From the NCBI RefSeq assembly GCF_003334315.1, contig NZ_QOWR01000076.1: a stretch of 15,313 nt of DNA. One strand, written 5' to 3'. A model generated the notes under the pieces. That model worked only from the letters and a program-made list of their open reading frames with translations, had not been told where the DNA came from and ran no database searches. Source of the DNA: Escherichia coli. Its GTDB lineage: Bacteria > Pseudomonadota > Gammaproteobacteria > Enterobacterales > Enterobacteriaceae. Below are positions 1 through 13,072 of the stretch, in pieces. Position numbers and translations under genes: made by a program. How positions within the stretch are numbered: the first letter of the stretch is position 1; each line of letters opens with the position of its first letter.

Positions 1-452
1 CTTTTCAAAAGGGTATTTTGGCTTTGACATATTAGGGGCTATTCCATTTCATCGTCCAACAAAATGGGTGCAGTACAGGGTTGATAGAAATATCTCCTGG
101 GGCTTCATCTTTCCAGACCTCAGAGTAAACCTGAAACCGGAAAGCTTCAGGCACCCGCCGTTATCTTACCCTTCCTCAACAAAATAGCTGTTTATTTATA
201 CAGTGAGTCCTGTTTCGGACTTCTCACTCCTCATTTAATCAACTGAAGCTGAACCCGTTTTTTTCTGCATGACTCAATCGTCAAAATTCTTCGCCACCAG
301 TCAGCACTGCCATAACTTGTCACATTGCAAAAGTAGCCAAATTGCTTCAGGCACCATCAGTTCACCATCACCAAAAAAAAGAAACATTCCAGAACTTCCG
401 CATCTCGCCCAGCCGCTCCGACTTCTATACTGAATAGAAAACGCCAACATAA

Positions 453-5974: not shown

Positions 5975-8900
5975 TTATTTCCGTACCCGATGTCGGTGCA
6001 GCCACATCAGCTTATACGCCGCCGGGATAATAAACAGCGACAGCAAAGGTGCGGTGATCATGCCGCCAATCATCGGCGCGGCAATCCGGCTCATCACCTC
6101 TGAACCAGCCCCCGTTCCCCACAGAATCGGCAGCAGACCGGCGATAATCACCGCCACCGTCATCGCTTTCGGGCGCACGCGCAGGACCGCGCCGTGATAT
6201 AACGCCTCATCCAGCTTCTGCTCGCTGAATGTTTGTGGATTATTCAACGACGGCACGGCCTCTATGGCGTGACGTAAATACATCAGCATCACCACGCCAA
6301 ATTCGGCGGCGACCCCGGCGAGGGCGATAAAGCCAGTGCCCGTCGCCACGGAAAGATGAAAGCCCATCCACCACAGCAACCAGATGCCGCCCACCAGCGC
6401 AAACGGTACGCTGCTGATAATCAGCAACGCTTCGCCCACCCGACGGAACGCCAGATACAACAGCACGAAGATAATCATCAACGTCATCGGCACCATGAGT
6501 TTAAGCTTATGGTTGGCGCGCTCCAGTAGCTCGAACTGCCCGGAGAATGCCACGCTGGTGCCCGGTTTTAACTGCACTTTTTCAGCTATCGCTTTTTGCA
6601 AATCGTGAACCACCGACACCATGTCACGATCGCGGGCATCGATATAAATCCAGCTCGTCGGGCGCGCATTCTCGGTTTTCAGCATCGACGGTCCGGTAGA
6701 GACTTTAATGTCGGCCACGTCTGCCAGGGTGATTTGCTGCTTCATCGGCGTCAGGATCGGCAGCTGGCGCAGTGCCTGCGGACTATCGCGCCAGCTTTGC
6801 GGATAACGCAGATTAATTGGATAACGGGCAATCCCTTCCACCGTTTCGCCAACCATCGCCCCGCCCACCGCAGAAGTCACAAACAACTGCACATCCGCCA
6901 CCGTCATACCGTAACGTGCGGCTTTTTCACGGTTAATCTCAACGTTGATATAGCGCCCACCTTCCAGCCGCTCGGCAAGCGCAGAAGCTACGCCTGGCAC
7001 CGTTCGCGCTACTTCTTCAATTTGCTCAGCCATCGCGTCGATATCCGCCAGCACAGTGCCGGAAACTTTAATGCCGATGGGGCTTTTAATGCCGGTTGAG
7101 AGCATATCGATACGGTTACGAATTGGCGGCACCCACAGATTCGCCAGCCCCGGCAGCCGCACGGTGTTATCCAGTTCCTCAATGATTTTGTCCATCGTCA
7201 TGCCTGGCCGCCACTGCTCCTGCGGCTTAAGCTGGATGGTCGTTTCTACCATCTCCAGCGGAGCAGAATCGGTGGCGGTTTCCGCTTTCCCGGTTTTGCC
7301 AAATACCCGCGCCACTTCAGGTACGCTCATAATTAGCTTGTCGGTTTTTTGCAGCATACTCGCCGCCTCTGCTGCGGAAATCCCCGGCAGCGTCGATGGC
7401 ATATACAACAAGTCGCCTTCATTGATCTGCGGTAAAAATTCCCCGCCAACTTTATTGAGCGGCCAGAGAACCGTCAGCACCGAAAGCGCCGCCACCAGCA
7501 GCGTGGTTTTCGGCCAGTGCAGTACTTTCAGCAACAGCGGATGATAAACACGAATCAAAAAGCGATTGAGCGGGTTACTGCTTTCCGGCGGAATTTTGCC
7601 ACGGATCCAGTAGCCCATCAGGATCGGGATCACTACGATCGCCAGCAGCGCCGCACCCGCCATCGCATACGTTTTGGTGAACGCCAACGGGCCAAACAGA
7701 CGCCCTTCCTGCCCTTCCAGGGTGAAGATCGGGATAAACGACAACGTGATAATCAGCAGACTGATAAATAGCGCCGGCCCCACTTCAACAGACGCATCGG
7801 TGATCACCTGCCAGCGCGTTTTATTATCCAGCGTGGCGTCAGGATGCTGGTGCTGCCACTCTTCCAGCCGTTTATGCGCATTCTCGATCATGACGATAGC
7901 AGCATCGACCATCGCCCCGACGGCAATCGCAATGCCACCCAACGACATAATATTGGCATTCAGTCCCTGGAAGTGCATGACAATAAAAGCAATACACAAC
8001 CCCAGCGGCAACGAAATAATCGCCACCAGCGCCGAGCGCACATGCCAGAGAAACAGCGCACAGACTACCGCCACCACAATAAACTCTTCCAGCAACTTGC
8101 CGCTGAGGTTGTCGATGGCGCGGTCAATGAGCTGGCTGCGATCGTATGTTGTAACTATCTCCACGCCTTCCGGCAGACTACTTTTCAGCGTTTCCAGTTT
8201 GTCCTTCACGGCGGCGATCACTTCTCGGGCGTTTTTGCCGGATCGCAGGATCACCACCCCGCCCGCCACTTCGCCTTCGCTGTTTAGTTCGGCAATGCCC
8301 CGGCGCATCTCCGGGCCAATCTGGACCTTCGCAACATCGCGCAGATAAACGGGCACGCCATTTTCACTGGCTTTTAAAACGATGTGATTAAAGTCGTCGA
8401 GCGTTTGCAGATAGCCGCTGGCGCGCACCATATATTCCGCTTCCGCCAGTTCGATCGACGAACCGCCCGCTTCCTGGTTTGAAGCATCCAGCGCGCTTTT
8501 TACTTCGGCGAGACTGATGCCATACTGCGCCAGGCGCTGGGGATCGATAACCACCTGATACTCTTTCACCACACCACCCACCGACGCCACTTCCGCAACG
8601 TCAGGGATGGTTTTCAGCTCATATTTGAGAAACCAGTCCTGTAATGAGCGTAAATCGGCCAGATCGTGCTTACCGCTGCGATCCACCAGTGCATATTCAT
8701 AGATCCAGCCAACACCCGTGGCATCTGGCCCCAGCTCGGCGCTGACTCCCGCAGGCAGCTTACCCTGTACCTGGTTGAGGTACTCCAGCACCCGCGAACG
8801 CGCCCAGTACGGATCGGTGCCATCTTCGAAAATGACATACACATAAGAGTCGCCAAACTGTGAGAAACCGCGCACAGTCTTCGCGCCAGGCACCGACAAC

Positions 8901-9118
8901 ATGGTGGTGGTTAGCGGATAAGTCACCTGATTTTCAACGATTTGTGGTGCCTGACCGGGATAGCTGGTTTTAATAATAACCTGCACATCGGAGAGATCCG
9001 GCAGCGCATCCACTGGCGTATTAATGATGGTCCAGGTGCCCCAGATGCTCAGAAACAACGCGCCCATCAGCACCAAAAAACGGTTCGCCACCGAGCGACG
9101 AATAATCCATTCAATCAT
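5975..9118 (-). CDS. cusA: CusA, RND-family inner-membrane Cu(I)/Ag(I) efflux pump
   Basis: 1047-aa ORF with typical RND architecture (12 transmembrane helices, two large periplasmic loops). The translation ([50 protein letters not shown]...) matches my recollection of E. coli CusA at full length. On the minus strand it starts 11 nt after the cusB stop, preceded by GGGA. Confidence 0.95.
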
Positions 9119-9129
9119 TGGTTATTCCC

Positions 9130-10353
9130 TCAATGCGCATGGGTAGCACTTTCAGAGCGCATCCGCTCCAGTGCGCCAGAAATATTGGCTTCGGAATCAA
9201 TCAGGAACAGGCCGCTGGAAACCACCTTTTCACCTTCCGCCAGACCAGAGCGTAATGCGGTGACGCCTTGCGATGCCTGGAAAACAGCAACGCGTTTCGG
9301 TACAAAGCGCCCGTCGGCATCAACGGTAATCACCCGCTGTTCGCTGCCGGTATCAATCAGCGCTTGTGACGGAATGAGCAGCATCGGTTCGCTGGCGGTG
9401 TTGAGTTGCAACCAGGCGTTCATGCCCGGTTTTAGCGCCTCGTCGGCGTTGTCGACTTCCAGACGCAGCTGCAGCGTGCGGGTCGCGGCATCCACGCCAG
9501 GTAGCAGCGTCCATTTGCGGATGGTGAGTGTTTTATCCGGTCGCGCCGGAACGGTGAGGGTAAACTGCGAGGCATCTTTCACCAGCCAGGCGATAGACTC
9601 CGGGATCGCAGCAGTGACCCACACCGGGTCCATACCCTGAATTTTCGCTACCACGTTATCTTTGGCGATATTCATTCCCGCGCGCAGATCAAACGCGGTG
9701 ATCACGCCATCAATGGGCGCTTTGAGCGTAAAGCGAGTCTGGATTTTTTGCGTGGCGATCAGGCGGCGAATATCCGCCTCCGGCATTCCCGCCAGTCGCA
9801 GCCGCTCAAGAATGCCTTCAGTCTGGGTCGCCGTACCGCCGGTTTCGCGCAGCAGTAAATACTCACTCTGCGCTTCCACCCAGTCAGGAATGGTCAGGTC
9901 GAGAAGCGGTGTGCCCTTTTGTACTTTATCGCCCACGGTAAGCGGATACACCTTGTCGATAAACCCGGCAGCGCGAGCCTGCACAATGGCATACTGATAC
10001 TCGTTGTAACTGACATTCGCCGGGAAACTCTGGGCAAAAGTCAGCGGTCCGCGCGTGACGGTAGCCGTTTTCACCCCCAGATTCTGCGTCTGAGTCGGGT
10101 CAATGCGCACACCAGACGCAGAACTCTCTTCATCGGCATATTTCGGCACCAGATCCATATCCATAAACGGCGATTTACCTGGTTTATCGAACCGCGTATT
10201 GGGATACATTAGGTCGTACCAGAATAAGATTTTACGTTCTGCGGTCGACGTTTTTTCTGCAGGCGGTTCCGCCTTTGCAACCCAGGTAAAACCTGCCGCA
10301 GAAATAATACCGCCCGCGATCATGCTGCCGATAATAAGCGCGATTTTTTTCAT
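9130..10353 (-). CDS. cusB: CusB, periplasmic membrane-fusion adaptor of the Cus efflux system
   Basis: 407-aa ORF with an N-terminal signal/anchor (MKKIALIIGSMIAGGIISAAGF). The N-terminal metal-binding methionines are visible in LMYPNTRFDKPGKSPFMDMDL. Correct size and position between cusF and cusA. Confidence 0.95.
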   Translation of the reverse strand: MKKIALIIGSMIAGGIISAAGFTWVAKAEPPAEKTSTAERKILFWYDLMYPNTRFDKPGKSPFMDMDLVPKYADEESSASGVRIDPTQTQNLGVKTATVTRGPLTFAQSFPANVSYNEYQYAIVQARAAGFIDKVYPLTVGDKVQKGTPLLDLTIPDWVEAQSEYLLLRETGGTATQTEGILERLRLAGMPEADIRRLIATQKIQTRFTLKAPIDGVITAFDLRAGMNIAKDNVVAKIQGMDPVWVTAAIPESIAWLVKDASQFTLTVPARPDKTLTIRKWTLLPGVDAATRTLQLRLEVDNADEALKPGMNAWLQLNTASEPMLLIPSQALIDTGSEQRVITVDADGRFVPKRVAVFQASQGVTALRSGLAEGEKVVSSGLFLIDSEANISGALERMRSESATHAH

Positions 10354-10368
10354 CTCATTAAACCTGGG

Positions 10369-10701
10369 TTACTGGCTGACTTTAATATCCTGTAATAAAG
10401 AAAGGTTGCCCTGCTGGACAAAATTAAACGCCACTTTGTCGCCGGTTTTAATTTCACTCATTTTCGTCTGCGGGGTGATGGTAAAGCGCATGGTCATCTC
10501 CGGCCAGTTCACAGCAGCAATCGGATCGTGATGGATGGTGATTTTTTTGCTTTCCAGATCAATACCCTTTACCTCGCCAGTGGCACTAATAACCTGTGGT
10601 TGTGCTTCGCTCATGGTTTCATGATGATGTTCGTTAGCCTGGGCATTAAAGCCAATAACGGTAAACAGACTGAACATTGCGACTTGCAGTGCTTTTTTCA
10701 T
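10369..10701 (-). CDS. cusF: CusF, periplasmic Cu(I)/Ag(I) metallochaperone
   Basis: 110-aa ORF with a signal peptide (MKKALQVAMFSLFTVIGFNAQA). The His/Trp/Met-x-Met ligand cluster is visible in ITIHHDPIAAVNWPEMTMRF. Good AGGAGAG Shine-Dalgarno on the minus strand just upstream of the ATG. Confidence 0.95.
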   Translation of the reverse strand: MKKALQVAMFSLFTVIGFNAQANEHHHETMSEAQPQVISATGEVKGIDLESKKITIHHDPIAAVNWPEMTMRFTITPQTKMSEIKTGDKVAFNFVQQGNLSLLQDIKVSQ

Positions 10702-10719
10702 TTATTCTCTCCTGGAGTT

Positions 10720-10855
10720 AAAAGTCATACTCTAAATAATTCGAGTTGCAGGAAGGCGACAAGCGAGTGAATCCCCAGGAGCTTACATAAGTAAGTGACT
10801 GGGGTGAGCGAACGCAGACGCAGCACATGCAACTTGAAGTATGACGAGTATATTG
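10720..10855. repeat. ERIC (enterobacterial repetitive intergenic consensus) element in the cusC-cusF spacer
   Basis: The core contains exact matches to both classical ERIC primer sites: GTGAATCCCCAGGAGCTTACAT at 10767..10788 (reverse complement of ERIC1R) and AAGTAAGTGACTGGGGTGAGCG at 10789..10810 (ERIC2). Imperfect palindromic arms flank it (GTCATAC at 10724-10730, GTATGAC at 10839-10845). The outer boundaries are approximate. Confidence 0.85.
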
Positions 10856-10858
10856 CTG

Positions 10859-12232
10859 TCAACCGCCACCAAGTGCGGTATACAAAGAAATTTCGTTAAC
10901 CTGACGGGCATAATTCAGGTCGAGTAAAGTTTGTCGGGTTGCAAATAAAGAACGCTCGGCATCCAGCACTTCCAGATAACTTACTGCGCCGTGCTGATAT
11001 AATGCCCGCGCCCGTTGCAAAGTAATTTGCAGCGATGCCAGATAACGCTGCTGGGCGCTAATTTGATCGTTCAGGCTTTGACGTAATGCCAGCGCATCTG
11101 CCACTTCTTTAAAGGCGTTCTGGATTTTCTGTTCATAATTCACCACCGACTGCTGCTGGCGAATTTCGGCGATATCCAGATTGGCCTGGTTGCGTCCGGC
11201 ATTAAAAATGGGGATCTCAATTTTGGGTATAAAATTCCACATCCCGCTGCTGGCGTTAAATAATGACGATAGATCGCTACTGGCGGTCGATATTCCGCTG
11301 GTCAGGCTTATAGACGGAAAAAATGCCGCGCGTGCAGCGCCAATATTGGCATTAGCCGCCATTAACGCGTGTTCAGCTTCCATAATATCCGGGCGCTGCA
11401 ATAAGATTTGCGACGACAATCCCGCCGGTAATTTAACGCTTTGCAGGCTGTCGCTGTTTACTGTCTGCGCTTGCGGCAGCTTGCCGTAGCTTCCCAATAA
11501 CAGTTGCAATGCATTATTCGCCTGCGCCAGTTCCCCCTGACGTTTAGCGATGTCGCTGCGGGTACTTTCAATCACCCCGCGAGCCTGTTCCAGCGCCAGA
11601 ACATTACTGCTACCTGTCAACAGTTGTTTTTCGACAAACGCATATGACTGCTGATAATTACGCAGCGTTTCTTCGGCTATTTGCAATTGCGCATACGCTA
11701 GCTGCTGATTGAAATAACTTTGCGCGACATTAGAAACCAGCAAAATATGCACCGCGCGCTGGGCTTCCTCAGTGGCTAAATAATTTTGGCGCTCGGCTTC
11801 GCTCATGTTCTTTAAGCGACCGAAAAAATCGAGGTCAAAGCTGGCGTTAAGGCCGGTCGAAAACTCCCGTGTCGTGGCGGTATTCCCTTTAAGATTACCG
11901 CTCCAGCTGCCGCTGCCCTCGCCATTGAGCTGTGGGTAGCGGTCGGCATCGGTCAGACGATATTGCGCCCGTGCCTCCTGCACTTTCAGCGTCGCCATGC
12001 GCAAATCCCGATTATTCACCAGCGCCTCGCTAATCAGCGTCTTCACCTGATTATCAACAAAAAAGGTGCGCCAGCCCGCGTTCTGATAGTTATCTGCTGC
12101 GTTAACCAGGCCGTTCTGGCTGAGTGAGAACTGCTGCGGCACGGGCATTGCCGGACGCTGATAATCCGGTGCCAGTGAACAACCGGTTAGCGCAAGGGCC
12201 ACACAAAATGGCAGAAGTTTACAAGGAGACAT
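10859..12232 (-). CDS. cusC: CusC, outer-membrane channel lipoprotein of the Cus efflux system (TolC-like)
   Basis: 457-aa ORF with a lipoprotein signal and lipobox (MSPCKLLPFCVALALTGCSLAP). Outer-membrane-factor family sequence, divergent from cusR and first gene of the cusCFBA operon. Confidence 0.95.
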   Translation of the reverse strand: MSPCKLLPFCVALALTGCSLAPDYQRPAMPVPQQFSLSQNGLVNAADNYQNAGWRTFFVDNQVKTLISEALVNNRDLRMATLKVQEARAQYRLTDADRYPQLNGEGSGSWSGNLKGNTATTREFSTGLNASFDLDFFGRLKNMSEAERQNYLATEEAQRAVHILLVSNVAQSYFNQQLAYAQLQIAEETLRNYQQSYAFVEKQLLTGSSNVLALEQARGVIESTRSDIAKRQGELAQANNALQLLLGSYGKLPQAQTVNSDSLQSVKLPAGLSSQILLQRPDIMEAEHALMAANANIGAARAAFFPSISLTSGISTASSDLSSLFNASSGMWNFIPKIEIPIFNAGRNQANLDIAEIRQQQSVVNYEQKIQNAFKEVADALALRQSLNDQISAQQRYLASLQITLQRARALYQHGAVSYLEVLDAERSLFATRQTLLDLNYARQVNEISLYTALGGG

Positions 12233-12301
12233 AGGCTCATAATTTCTGGTGATTTTATACCGCCAACTTTACTCGCCAGGCTCTGATTTTCCGGTGACAG
12301 G

Positions 12302-12323
12302 AAAATGACAAAATTGTCATTTT
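12302..12323. promoter_or_regulatory. CusR box (response-regulator binding palindrome) in the cusC/cusRS divergent control region
   Basis: AAAATGACAA-AA-TTGTCATTTT: two perfect 10-bp inverted arms around a 2-bp spacer, which is the published CusR-box consensus AAAATGACAANNTTGTCATTTT. It lies between a candidate cusC -10 (TATAAA on the minus strand, plus coordinates 12259..12254) and the candidate cusR promoter. Confidence 0.85.
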
Positions 12324-12335
12324 GCCAATAAGCGA

Positions 12336-12363
12336 TTGCCATCTGATCCCGCTACTCTAGAAT
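12336..12363 (+). promoter_or_regulatory. Candidate sigma70 promoter for cusRS
   Basis: -35 TTGCCA (12336-12341), 16-bp spacer, -10 TAGAAT (12358-12363), about 25 nt upstream of the cusR ATG. Predicted by eye only. Confidence 0.4.
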
Positions 12364-12388
12364 TGCCCGGGCAACATGCGGAGGAAAT

Positions 12389-13072
12389 ATGAAACTGTTG
12401 ATTGTCGAAGATGAAAAGAAAACCGGAGAATACTTGACCAAAGGGTTAACCGAAGCCGGTTTTGTGGTCGATTTGGCCGACAACGGGCTGAATGGCTACC
12501 ATCTGGCGATGACCGGTGATTATGATCTGATAATCCTCGATATTATGCTGCCGGACGTGAACGGCTGGGATATCGTGCGCATGTTACGCTCCGCCAATAA
12601 AGGGATGCCGATTCTGTTGCTTACCGCGCTTGGCACCATTGAACATCGCGTCAAGGGGCTGGAGTTGGGGGCAGATGACTACCTGGTGAAGCCATTCGCT
12701 TTTGCTGAACTGCTGGCGCGGGTGCGCACATTACTGCGGCGCGGGGCGGCGGTGATTATCGAAAGTCAGTTTCAGGTTGCCGATTTGATGGTCGATCTCG
12801 TCAGCCGCAAAGTCACCCGCAGCGGCACGCGCATCACTTTGACCAGTAAAGAGTTTACTCTGCTGGAGTTCTTCCTTCGCCATCAGGGCGAAGTGCTGCC
12901 CCGCTCGCTTATCGCCTCGCAGGTATGGGACATGAATTTTGACAGCGATACCAATGCTATTGATGTGGCGGTGAAGCGGCTGCGCGGCAAAATCGACAAC
13001 GACTTTGAGCCGAAGCTAATTCAGACCGTGCGCGGCGTGGGTTACATGCTTGAGGTGCCGGATGGTCAGTAA
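12389..13072 (+). CDS. cusR: CusR, OmpR-family response regulator of the CusS/CusR two-component system
   Basis: 227-aa ORF, GGAGG at 12380-12384. Receiver domain with the conserved phospho-acceptor context ([17 protein letters not shown]) and a C-terminal winged-helix domain ([21 protein letters not shown]...). Matches my recollection of E. coli CusR. Confidence 0.95.

Follow-up and report, generated by a model that had tools for sequence, protein, structure and literature searches.

An ERIC element between cusC and cusF of Escherichia coli occupies the ancestral stop codon of cusC

The DNA analyzed here, a stretch of 15,313 nucleotides that we refer to as the window, contains the copper/silver efflux locus of Escherichia coli, with cusCFBA on the minus strand and cusRS on the plus strand. 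On the minus strand, cusA occupies positions 5975-9118, cusB 9130-10353 and cusF 10369-10701. The latter encodes 110 aa, and the names were taken from RefSeq annotation of identical or near-identical DNA. The cusC gene (10859-12232, minus strand) is present as a 457-aa allele, which carries its RefSeq name and matches the NCBIfam model NF007347 (Cu/Ag efflux outer membrane protein) with 899.6 bits. Between the stop of cusC (10859) and the start of cusF (10701) lies a spacer of 157 nt, the length given for it in the first-pass annotation of this DNA. The Shine-Dalgarno sequence of cusF, GGAGAG, is located at 10707-10712 on the minus strand; it lies outside of the repeat element described below and is the same in alleles with the element (filled) and without it (empty). 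At the left edge of the window (positions 1-156, minus strand), the full-length Rfam model of the sok antitoxin RNA (RF01794) matched with 63.7 bits against a gathering score of 59, which points to a toxin-antitoxin locus of the hok/sok type.

The cusC-cusF spacer harbors a full-length ERIC element (IRU/RU-1) of 127 nt including its TA-type termini, located at 10726-10852 on the minus strand as delimited by a gap-free consensus alignment and by alignment of filled against empty alleles. On the cus sense strand it reads TATACTCG...GAGTATG. Its central core is composed of two adjacent 22-mers, i.e. the exact ERIC1R primer sequence ATGTAAGCTCCTGGGGATTCAC at 10767-10788 (minus strand) and the exact ERIC2 primer sequence AAGTAAGTGACTGGGGTGAGCG at 10789-10810 (plus strand). 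Each of them is found at this one place in the window, and 200 shuffles gave no match to either one, even with three mismatches allowed. We compared positions 10852-10726 (cus sense) with two sequences of 127 nt taken from Table 1a of Delihas 2007 (PMC2759123), where the E. coli consensus is given as the reverse complement of that of Wilson & Sharp 2006. The element agrees with the E. coli ERIC consensus at 112 of 127 positions and with the Salmonella SeRU-1 copy at 118 of 127, in both cases over the full length and with no gaps, the consensus alignments extending from the first TATAC to the last GTAT. Thus, the similarity is not confined to the short core, as the flanking arms align over all 127 nt, and both the primer sites and the gap-free alignment bear out the first-pass annotation in its identification of an ERIC element. 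Its statement that the spacer is almost entirely ERIC was right in substance, with 127 of 157 bases covered (81%), and the range of 10720-10855 that it gave overshoots the element by a few bases on either side. The coordinates and the annotation also place the element where it had been assigned, inside the cusCFBA transcription unit between cusC and cusF. With respect to identity and history, we consider the spacer to hold, almost certainly, an ordinary and complete ERIC miniature inverted-repeat element.

At the gathering threshold, Rfam returned no match at the ERIC site, and no curated RNA family covers the element. Under a relaxed E-value, a single genuine signal emerged, V_AS5 (Vibrio RNA AS5, RF02818) at window positions 10725-10844 on the plus strand. 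This match is clearly non-random and spans the whole model (1-129) with E = 1.2e-8, and its 44.5 bits fall short of the gathering score of 96. It suggests that ERIC-related repeats underlie the 'antisense RNA' family AS5 of Vibrio. Near full-length relatives of the cus element are found in all of 5426 complete E. coli genomes, at a median of 11 places per genome (range 2-21). One such copy, situated beside ybhI in O157:H7 and O55:H7 strains (e.g. NZ_CP062780.1 3869579-3869706), is 100% identical to window positions 10727-10854 over 128 nt, and the strains that carry it are devoid of the cus copy. The identity of the two suggests a recent common source copy or homogenization among copies.

To describe the distribution of the cus element, we searched the 5426 complete E. 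coli genomes with an 801-nt query spanning the junction, which located the cus junction locus in 5335 of them. A site was counted as filled when a 281-nt query, 45% of which is ERIC, was covered by at least 80%. In this way, 1608 of the 5426 genomes (~30%) were found to be filled and ~3700 (~70%) to be empty. K-12, ATCC 8739 and several large bovine or STEC-sized genomes are among the filled examples, and the empty alleles that we fetched came from dog, cattle, poultry and salad isolates. TR01, the one O157:H7 strain checked directly, has an empty site. Strain-variable presence had been expected by the first-pass annotation, and it was confirmed by these counts.

In empty alleles, cusC comprises 1383 nt (460 aa) and is separated from cusF by a gap of 23 nt. 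The empty junction reads ...GGC GGT TGG CAG CAA TAA CTTTTAACTCCAGGAGAGAATAAATG and the filled junction ...GGC GGT TGA CAG CAA TA[125 nt]A CTTTTAAC.... Relative to the empty alleles, the net insert thus amounts to 125 nt (10726-10850) and is flanked by CAGCAATA and ACTTTT. Judging from this alignment, the 157-nt spacer is not native, a point that had escaped the first-pass annotation, and the ancestral gap is that of 23 nt. The alignment furthermore shows that the target TA (10851-10852, minus strand) once began the ancestral stop codon TAA of cusC, the third base of which is now found at 10725, across the insert. ERIC elements insert at TA and duplicate it (Delihas 2007, PMC2759123; reviews). 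Where a second copy of the TA is expected (10727-10726), all six of the filled alleles inspected have TG, so that the reading as a TA duplication needs one extra substitution. The TA...TG flanks fit a duplication that was followed by a single substitution.

Filled and empty alleles also differ within cusC. All typical filled alleles carry TGA instead of TGG three codons before the ancestral stop, and in the allele alignment this difference tracks the filled or empty state. The TGA is the present stop codon of cusC (10859-10861, minus strand), and the corresponding codon is TGG (Trp458) in empty E. coli, in E. whittamii and in plasmid silC. As a consequence of the change, cusC ends three codons early and encodes 457 rather than 460 aa, and the whole ERIC element comes to lie between cusC and cusF in a part of the cusCFBA mRNA that is not translated. 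The C-terminus of CusC therefore reads ...ALGGG in the filled and ...ALGGGWQQ in the empty form. The tryptophan missing from the 457-aa protein is kept in the 460-aa CusC, in SilC including its newer structure and in OprM; plasmid SilC ends with ...ALGGGWVE* (the silC-silF gap measures 31 nt) and OprM with ...ALGGGWNQ. All of the solved CusC structures that we found (3PIK, 4K7K, 4K7R and 4K34) represent the truncated K-12 form followed by a tag. In an allele that combines TGG with the insert, the cusC frame is open through the whole ERIC and stops two codons past the element. The predicted read-through CusC has 504 aa including an ERIC-encoded tail of 44 aa, YTRHTSSCMCCVCVRSPQSLTYVSSWGFTRLSPSCNSNYLEYDF, and this tail is in the frame of the RU-1 peptide of Delihas 2007 (PMC2759123). 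This form is predicted for only two of the 5426 genomes. As an explanation of the locus as a whole, it is likely that an ordinary ERIC element inserted once into the TA of the cusC stop codon, that the TGA is linked to this insertion, and that the element now resides untranslated in the junction.

A 20-nt pattern covering the 3' end of cusC was run against GTDB, with one genome representing each species. Of its 15 hits, 12 were spurious matches to DNA of unrelated phyla and three were Escherichia loci. Two of the latter, in E. whittamii and in a divergent 'E. coli', share 92-95% identity with the window; both are empty and carry TGG as well as TAA, which confirms this as the ancestral state of the junction. 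The third, in Escherichia sp. MOD1-EC7003, agrees with the window at 95.2% of 4972 ungapped nt and nevertheless shares its filled junction, with the TGA, an identical 127-nt ERIC and the same TG end. In this alignment, the longest run free of mismatches extends over 202 nt (10666-10867) and contains the TGA, the ERIC and the start of cusF; the next-longest runs measure 145 and 131 nt. Most simply, one insertion allele would have been transferred between the lineages within a short patch of recombination, and a slower evolution of the ERIC element could also account for the identical patch. MOD1-EC7003 carries a second ERIC at 899-1026 of its extracted locus, ~130 nt beyond the end of cusS, which points the other way from the copy between cusC and cusF; no ERIC is present at the matching position of the window. 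Within E. coli, the region from cusC over cusF to cusB (window positions 9300-12400) is strongly mosaic, with SNP blocks combined differently between strains, which indicates frequent recombination. The same filled allele has spread into different cus backgrounds.

The order of insertion and stop change was addressed through haplotypes, which we obtained by exact-context queries of the 5426 E. coli genomes together with a SNP table of 10 alleles. The common filled allele (~1600 genomes) combines TGA with a G at position 10883, a linked synonymous site. Two genomes, 1919D3 and BHUCD02, are filled and have TGG together with A at 10883. Their read-through cusC lies at positions 151-1675 of the extracted locus and is annotated by PGAP as a pseudogene with 'missing C-terminus', and the ERIC of BHUCD02 differs from the window copy by two bases. 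Two further genomes, 1919D62 and Z1323PEC0010, are empty and have TGA with G at 10883; their CusC is identical to the K-12 protein, and the empty junction is found at about 1522-1557 of the extracted locus. One genome is empty with TGG and G at 10883. The combination of filled, TGA and A at 10883 occurs in none of the E. coli genomes and was seen in MOD1-EC7003. Z1323PEC0010 has the base of the window at all but 1 of 146 variable sites over ~3 kb and hence represents a natural near-isogenic control without ERIC. The state of the linked site implies that the rare haplotypes differ by exchange of a segment and not by point reversion. An exchange ending at the edge of the 125-nt heterology would yield both of the rare types, i.e. 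filled with TGG and empty with TGA.

Two orders of events can be put forward on these grounds. Insertion might have come first, in which case the ERIC would have broken the cusC stop and extended CusC to 504 aa, and the TGA would then have been selected as a rescue at the cost of Trp458; we place this order slightly short of an even chance. It finds support in the ancestral TAA that is split by the insert, in the read-through frame that stays open across the ERIC and ends two codons beyond it, and in the two filled genomes with TGG whose cusC PGAP calls a pseudogene. Moreover, conservation of the tryptophan in the 460-aa CusC, SilC and OprM makes its earlier neutral loss less likely, and a rare nonsense change about 8-9 nt away from a rare insertion is a coincidence that asks for a causal link. 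ERIC fusions that removed a normal stop, followed by new stops, are also described by Delihas 2007 (PMC2759123). This order is weakened by the two empty genomes with TGA and a K-12-identical CusC, given that one of them, Z1323PEC0010, is a single site of 146 away from the window. Furthermore, an empty TGG allele with the linked G at 10883 exists, so that the opposite path has every intermediate, and both filled alleles with TGG have the empty-type base at 10883, which looks less like an ancestral condition than like recombination at the insert boundary.

That opposite path would begin with the stop change: TGG turned into TGA in an empty allele, the old stop became untranslated, and an ERIC that later entered its TA was harmless. 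We hold this permissive order to be nearly, and not quite, an even proposition. Its strength is a chain of single steps that are all extant, from empty TGG with 10883A over empty TGG with 10883G (one genome) and empty TGA with 10883G (two genomes) to filled TGA with 10883G (~1600 genomes). In addition, there is no flanking microhomology that would favor exact restoration of CAATAACTTTT by deletion. This order needs, however, an earlier loss of the conserved tryptophan with no obvious benefit, it leaves the closeness (8 nt) of two rare events to chance, and the rare haplotypes on which it draws are equally explicable as recombinants of an exchange ending at the edge of the insert. With rare recombinant haplotypes in both directions and a mosaic locus, the haplotypes are compatible with either order of events.

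We then considered what the element may do to the cus transcript. A consensus scan found no promoter-like or terminator-like sites on the cus sense strand of the spacer. This fits a probable co-transcription of the ERIC within cusCFBA. The terminal arms of the ERIC comprise 24 nt each and are 79% complementary, and the core arms comprise 14 nt. In folding predictions, the 157-nt spacer RNA reached -44.7 kcal/mol in the cus sense (z = -3.7 versus shuffled controls) and -55.0 kcal/mol in antisense (z = -5.0), and the ERIC alone -42.9 kcal/mol in the sense and -52.4 kcal/mol on the opposite strand. The pairing of the terminal arms and a spacer fold well below that of the shuffles thus agree with the long stem-loop that had been proposed from the sequence. 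As the sense fold is weaker than the antisense fold, the operon would transcribe the ERIC in its weaker-folding orientation, in which its ORF is open. The transcribed element is predicted to form a self-contained hairpin that starts 7 nt past the TGA of cusC. Masking of the cusF ribosome-binding site by the ERIC was evaluated as a candidate effect and rejected, since the predicted mean unpaired probability from the Shine-Dalgarno sequence to the AUG is 0.68 with the element and 0.67 in the near-isogenic empty allele. The ribosome-binding site should hence be equally accessible despite the hairpin. The increase of the stop-to-start distance from 23 to 157 nt would plausibly abolish any translational coupling of cusC and cusF.

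The 3' arm of the ERIC as transcribed contains an AU-rich stretch, GAAUUAUUUAG (10732-10742, minus strand), in which GA|AUU fits the sequence RN|WUU and which is a candidate RNase E site by analogy only. RN|WUU is reportedly the motif of RNase E, a finding ascribed to Chao et al. 2017; being short, it is also common, with three matches in the 205 nt examined. We modeled a ribosome at the TGA of cusC by forbidding pairing through +12 nt. Under this constraint, the basal helix of 7 bp is lost and the stem shifts its register, with AAUUAUUUA of the 3' arm now unpaired in a loop of 9 nt that includes GA|AUU. Hence, a ribosome terminating at the TGA would be expected to open the basal helix and expose the AU-rich stretch of the 3' arm. 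For Yersinia, the work of De Gregorio 2005, as relayed by reviews, describes stop-proximal ERICs that are unfolded by the ribosome; an RNase E site in their 3' terminal repeat is thereby exposed and less of the upstream transcript remains, depending on the orientation of the element. This is a published precedent for the differing stability or processing of the cusC and cusFBA segments that the first-pass annotation had raised as a possibility. By this model, RNase E might cleave the exposed stretch of the cus transcript and leave less mRNA of the upstream cusC than of the downstream cusFBA. That the element has a measurable regulatory effect of this kind on cus is a tentative idea, borrowed by analogy and on the whole rather doubtful. 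Moreover, as the predicted accessibility of the cusF ribosome-binding site is unchanged, any effect may be small. Our literature search found nothing specific that links an ERIC to cusC/cusF, or cusCFBA to RNase E or processing.

A neutral passenger is at least as likely as a measurable effect of the Yersinia type. The element would then be a selfish insertion with no measurable consequence for cus, and its frequency of 30% as well as its occurrence in several backgrounds would have arisen from drift, hitch-hiking and ordinary homologous recombination, a scenario that comes close to being an even call. Several observations agree with neutrality: ERIC is a mobile family found in many copies and at numerous sites that vary between strains; the cus element folds on itself, and the predicted accessibility of the cusF ribosome-binding site stays as it was; 70% of E. 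coli and the outgroups examined (E. whittamii and the divergent 'E. coli') do without it; and the cus region is visibly mosaic. On the other hand, the insertion has turned a compact junction of 23 nt into a structured one of 157 nt right after a stop codon, a geometry that reviews report to be important in Yersinia. In addition, MOD1-EC7003 has the same allele, and there it falls into the longest stretch of identity in the alignment, which might point to selection without requiring it.

A more ambitious version of the regulatory model would view the allele of K-12 and ~30% of E. coli as a rescued stop knockout, in which a compensatory nonsense mutation removed the conserved tryptophan, with the unit of ERIC and TGA having spread by short-patch recombination across E. 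coli backgrounds and into a cryptic Escherichia lineage because it retunes the ratio of CusC to CusFBA via an RNase E site that the ribosome exposes; we regard this as unlikely. Still less probable is an attenuator or insulator, in which the hairpin partly terminates or pauses transcription or abolishes coupling and thereby lowers cusFBA relative to cusC, the opposite of the RNase E model. The CUUUU that follows the hairpin on the sense strand and the greater stop-to-start distance (23 to 157 nt) would suit such a role. It is at odds with the consensus scan, which called no terminator, with an AU-rich stem base and a U run of only four bases, and with the predicted accessibility of the cusF ribosome-binding site, which is the same for the two alleles.

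Much of what we describe is already known as a property of the ERIC family, since the elements as such, their hairpin, their variability between strains and their occurrence at the 3' ends of genes were described from 1990 to 2007, and a place within an operon and an overlap with stop codons are likewise on record for them. As K-12 has the cus copy, it should already be contained in published ERIC catalogs of K-12. Three points may not have been spelled out before, namely that the ERIC occupies the ancestral stop codon of cusC, that the K-12-type CusC is a minority form shorter by three residues, and that the unit of insertion and stop has moved between lineages. For those working on Cus, these are useful footnotes and a convenient natural experiment rather than a new type of system. 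The allele on which laboratory studies of Cus are based is that of K-12, which is the minority one, is devoid of the conserved terminal tryptophan and has a structured junction of 157 nt, compared to 23 nt in most E. coli. The natural near-isogenic alleles (empty with TGA, filled with TGA and filled with TGG) offer a clean test of whether an ERIC alters the stoichiometry of an efflux-pump operon in E. coli. Furthermore, the cusC-cusF site provides a simple presence/absence marker that divides E. coli at ~30:70.

The cus element can be compared with several known systems. REP/BIME and Correia elements are, like the cus ERIC, repeated palindromes in intercistronic mRNA that are able to alter segmental stability or processing. 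Their sequences are unrelated to it, however, and they act differently, REP as a barrier to 3' exonucleases and Correia elements as substrates of RNase III. Fusions of ERIC/RU-1 to the 3' ends of genes, e.g. the amidase ECA3499 of Erwinia carotovora, were described by Delihas 2007 (PMC2759123). The orientation of the ERIC in the cus mRNA is the ORF-open one used by these 3'-end fusions. The cus locus resembles them in that the normal stop is removed, the frame of the gene enters the 42-codon ORF of the ERIC (...NSNYLEY) and a new stop limits read-through. It differs in that the new stop lies upstream of the ERIC, so that the common allele translates none of the element, and in that CusC is shorter by three residues and not lengthened. 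With the stop-proximal ERICs of Yersinia, as far as the reviews portray them, the cus copy shares its probable co-transcription, its position next to the upstream stop (7 nt) and an AU-rich 3' arm that becomes single-stranded once the modeled ribosome has opened the basal helix. The host in the present case is E. coli and not Yersinia. The closest relationship is to the family itself, the ERIC/IRU/RU-1 elements of Enterobacteriaceae, which are reportedly treated in Sharples & Lloyd 1990, Hulton et al. 1991 and Wilson & Sharp 2006. The cus copy agrees with the family in its 127 nt, the exact primer core, the full-length match to the consensus, the long imperfect terminal inverted repeats and the TA-type termini, as well as in the presence of multiple copies per genome, a probably transcribed intergenic place and a presence/absence pattern with clean empty sites. 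It departs from the family in one flanking TA that reads TG, and in nothing else of substance.
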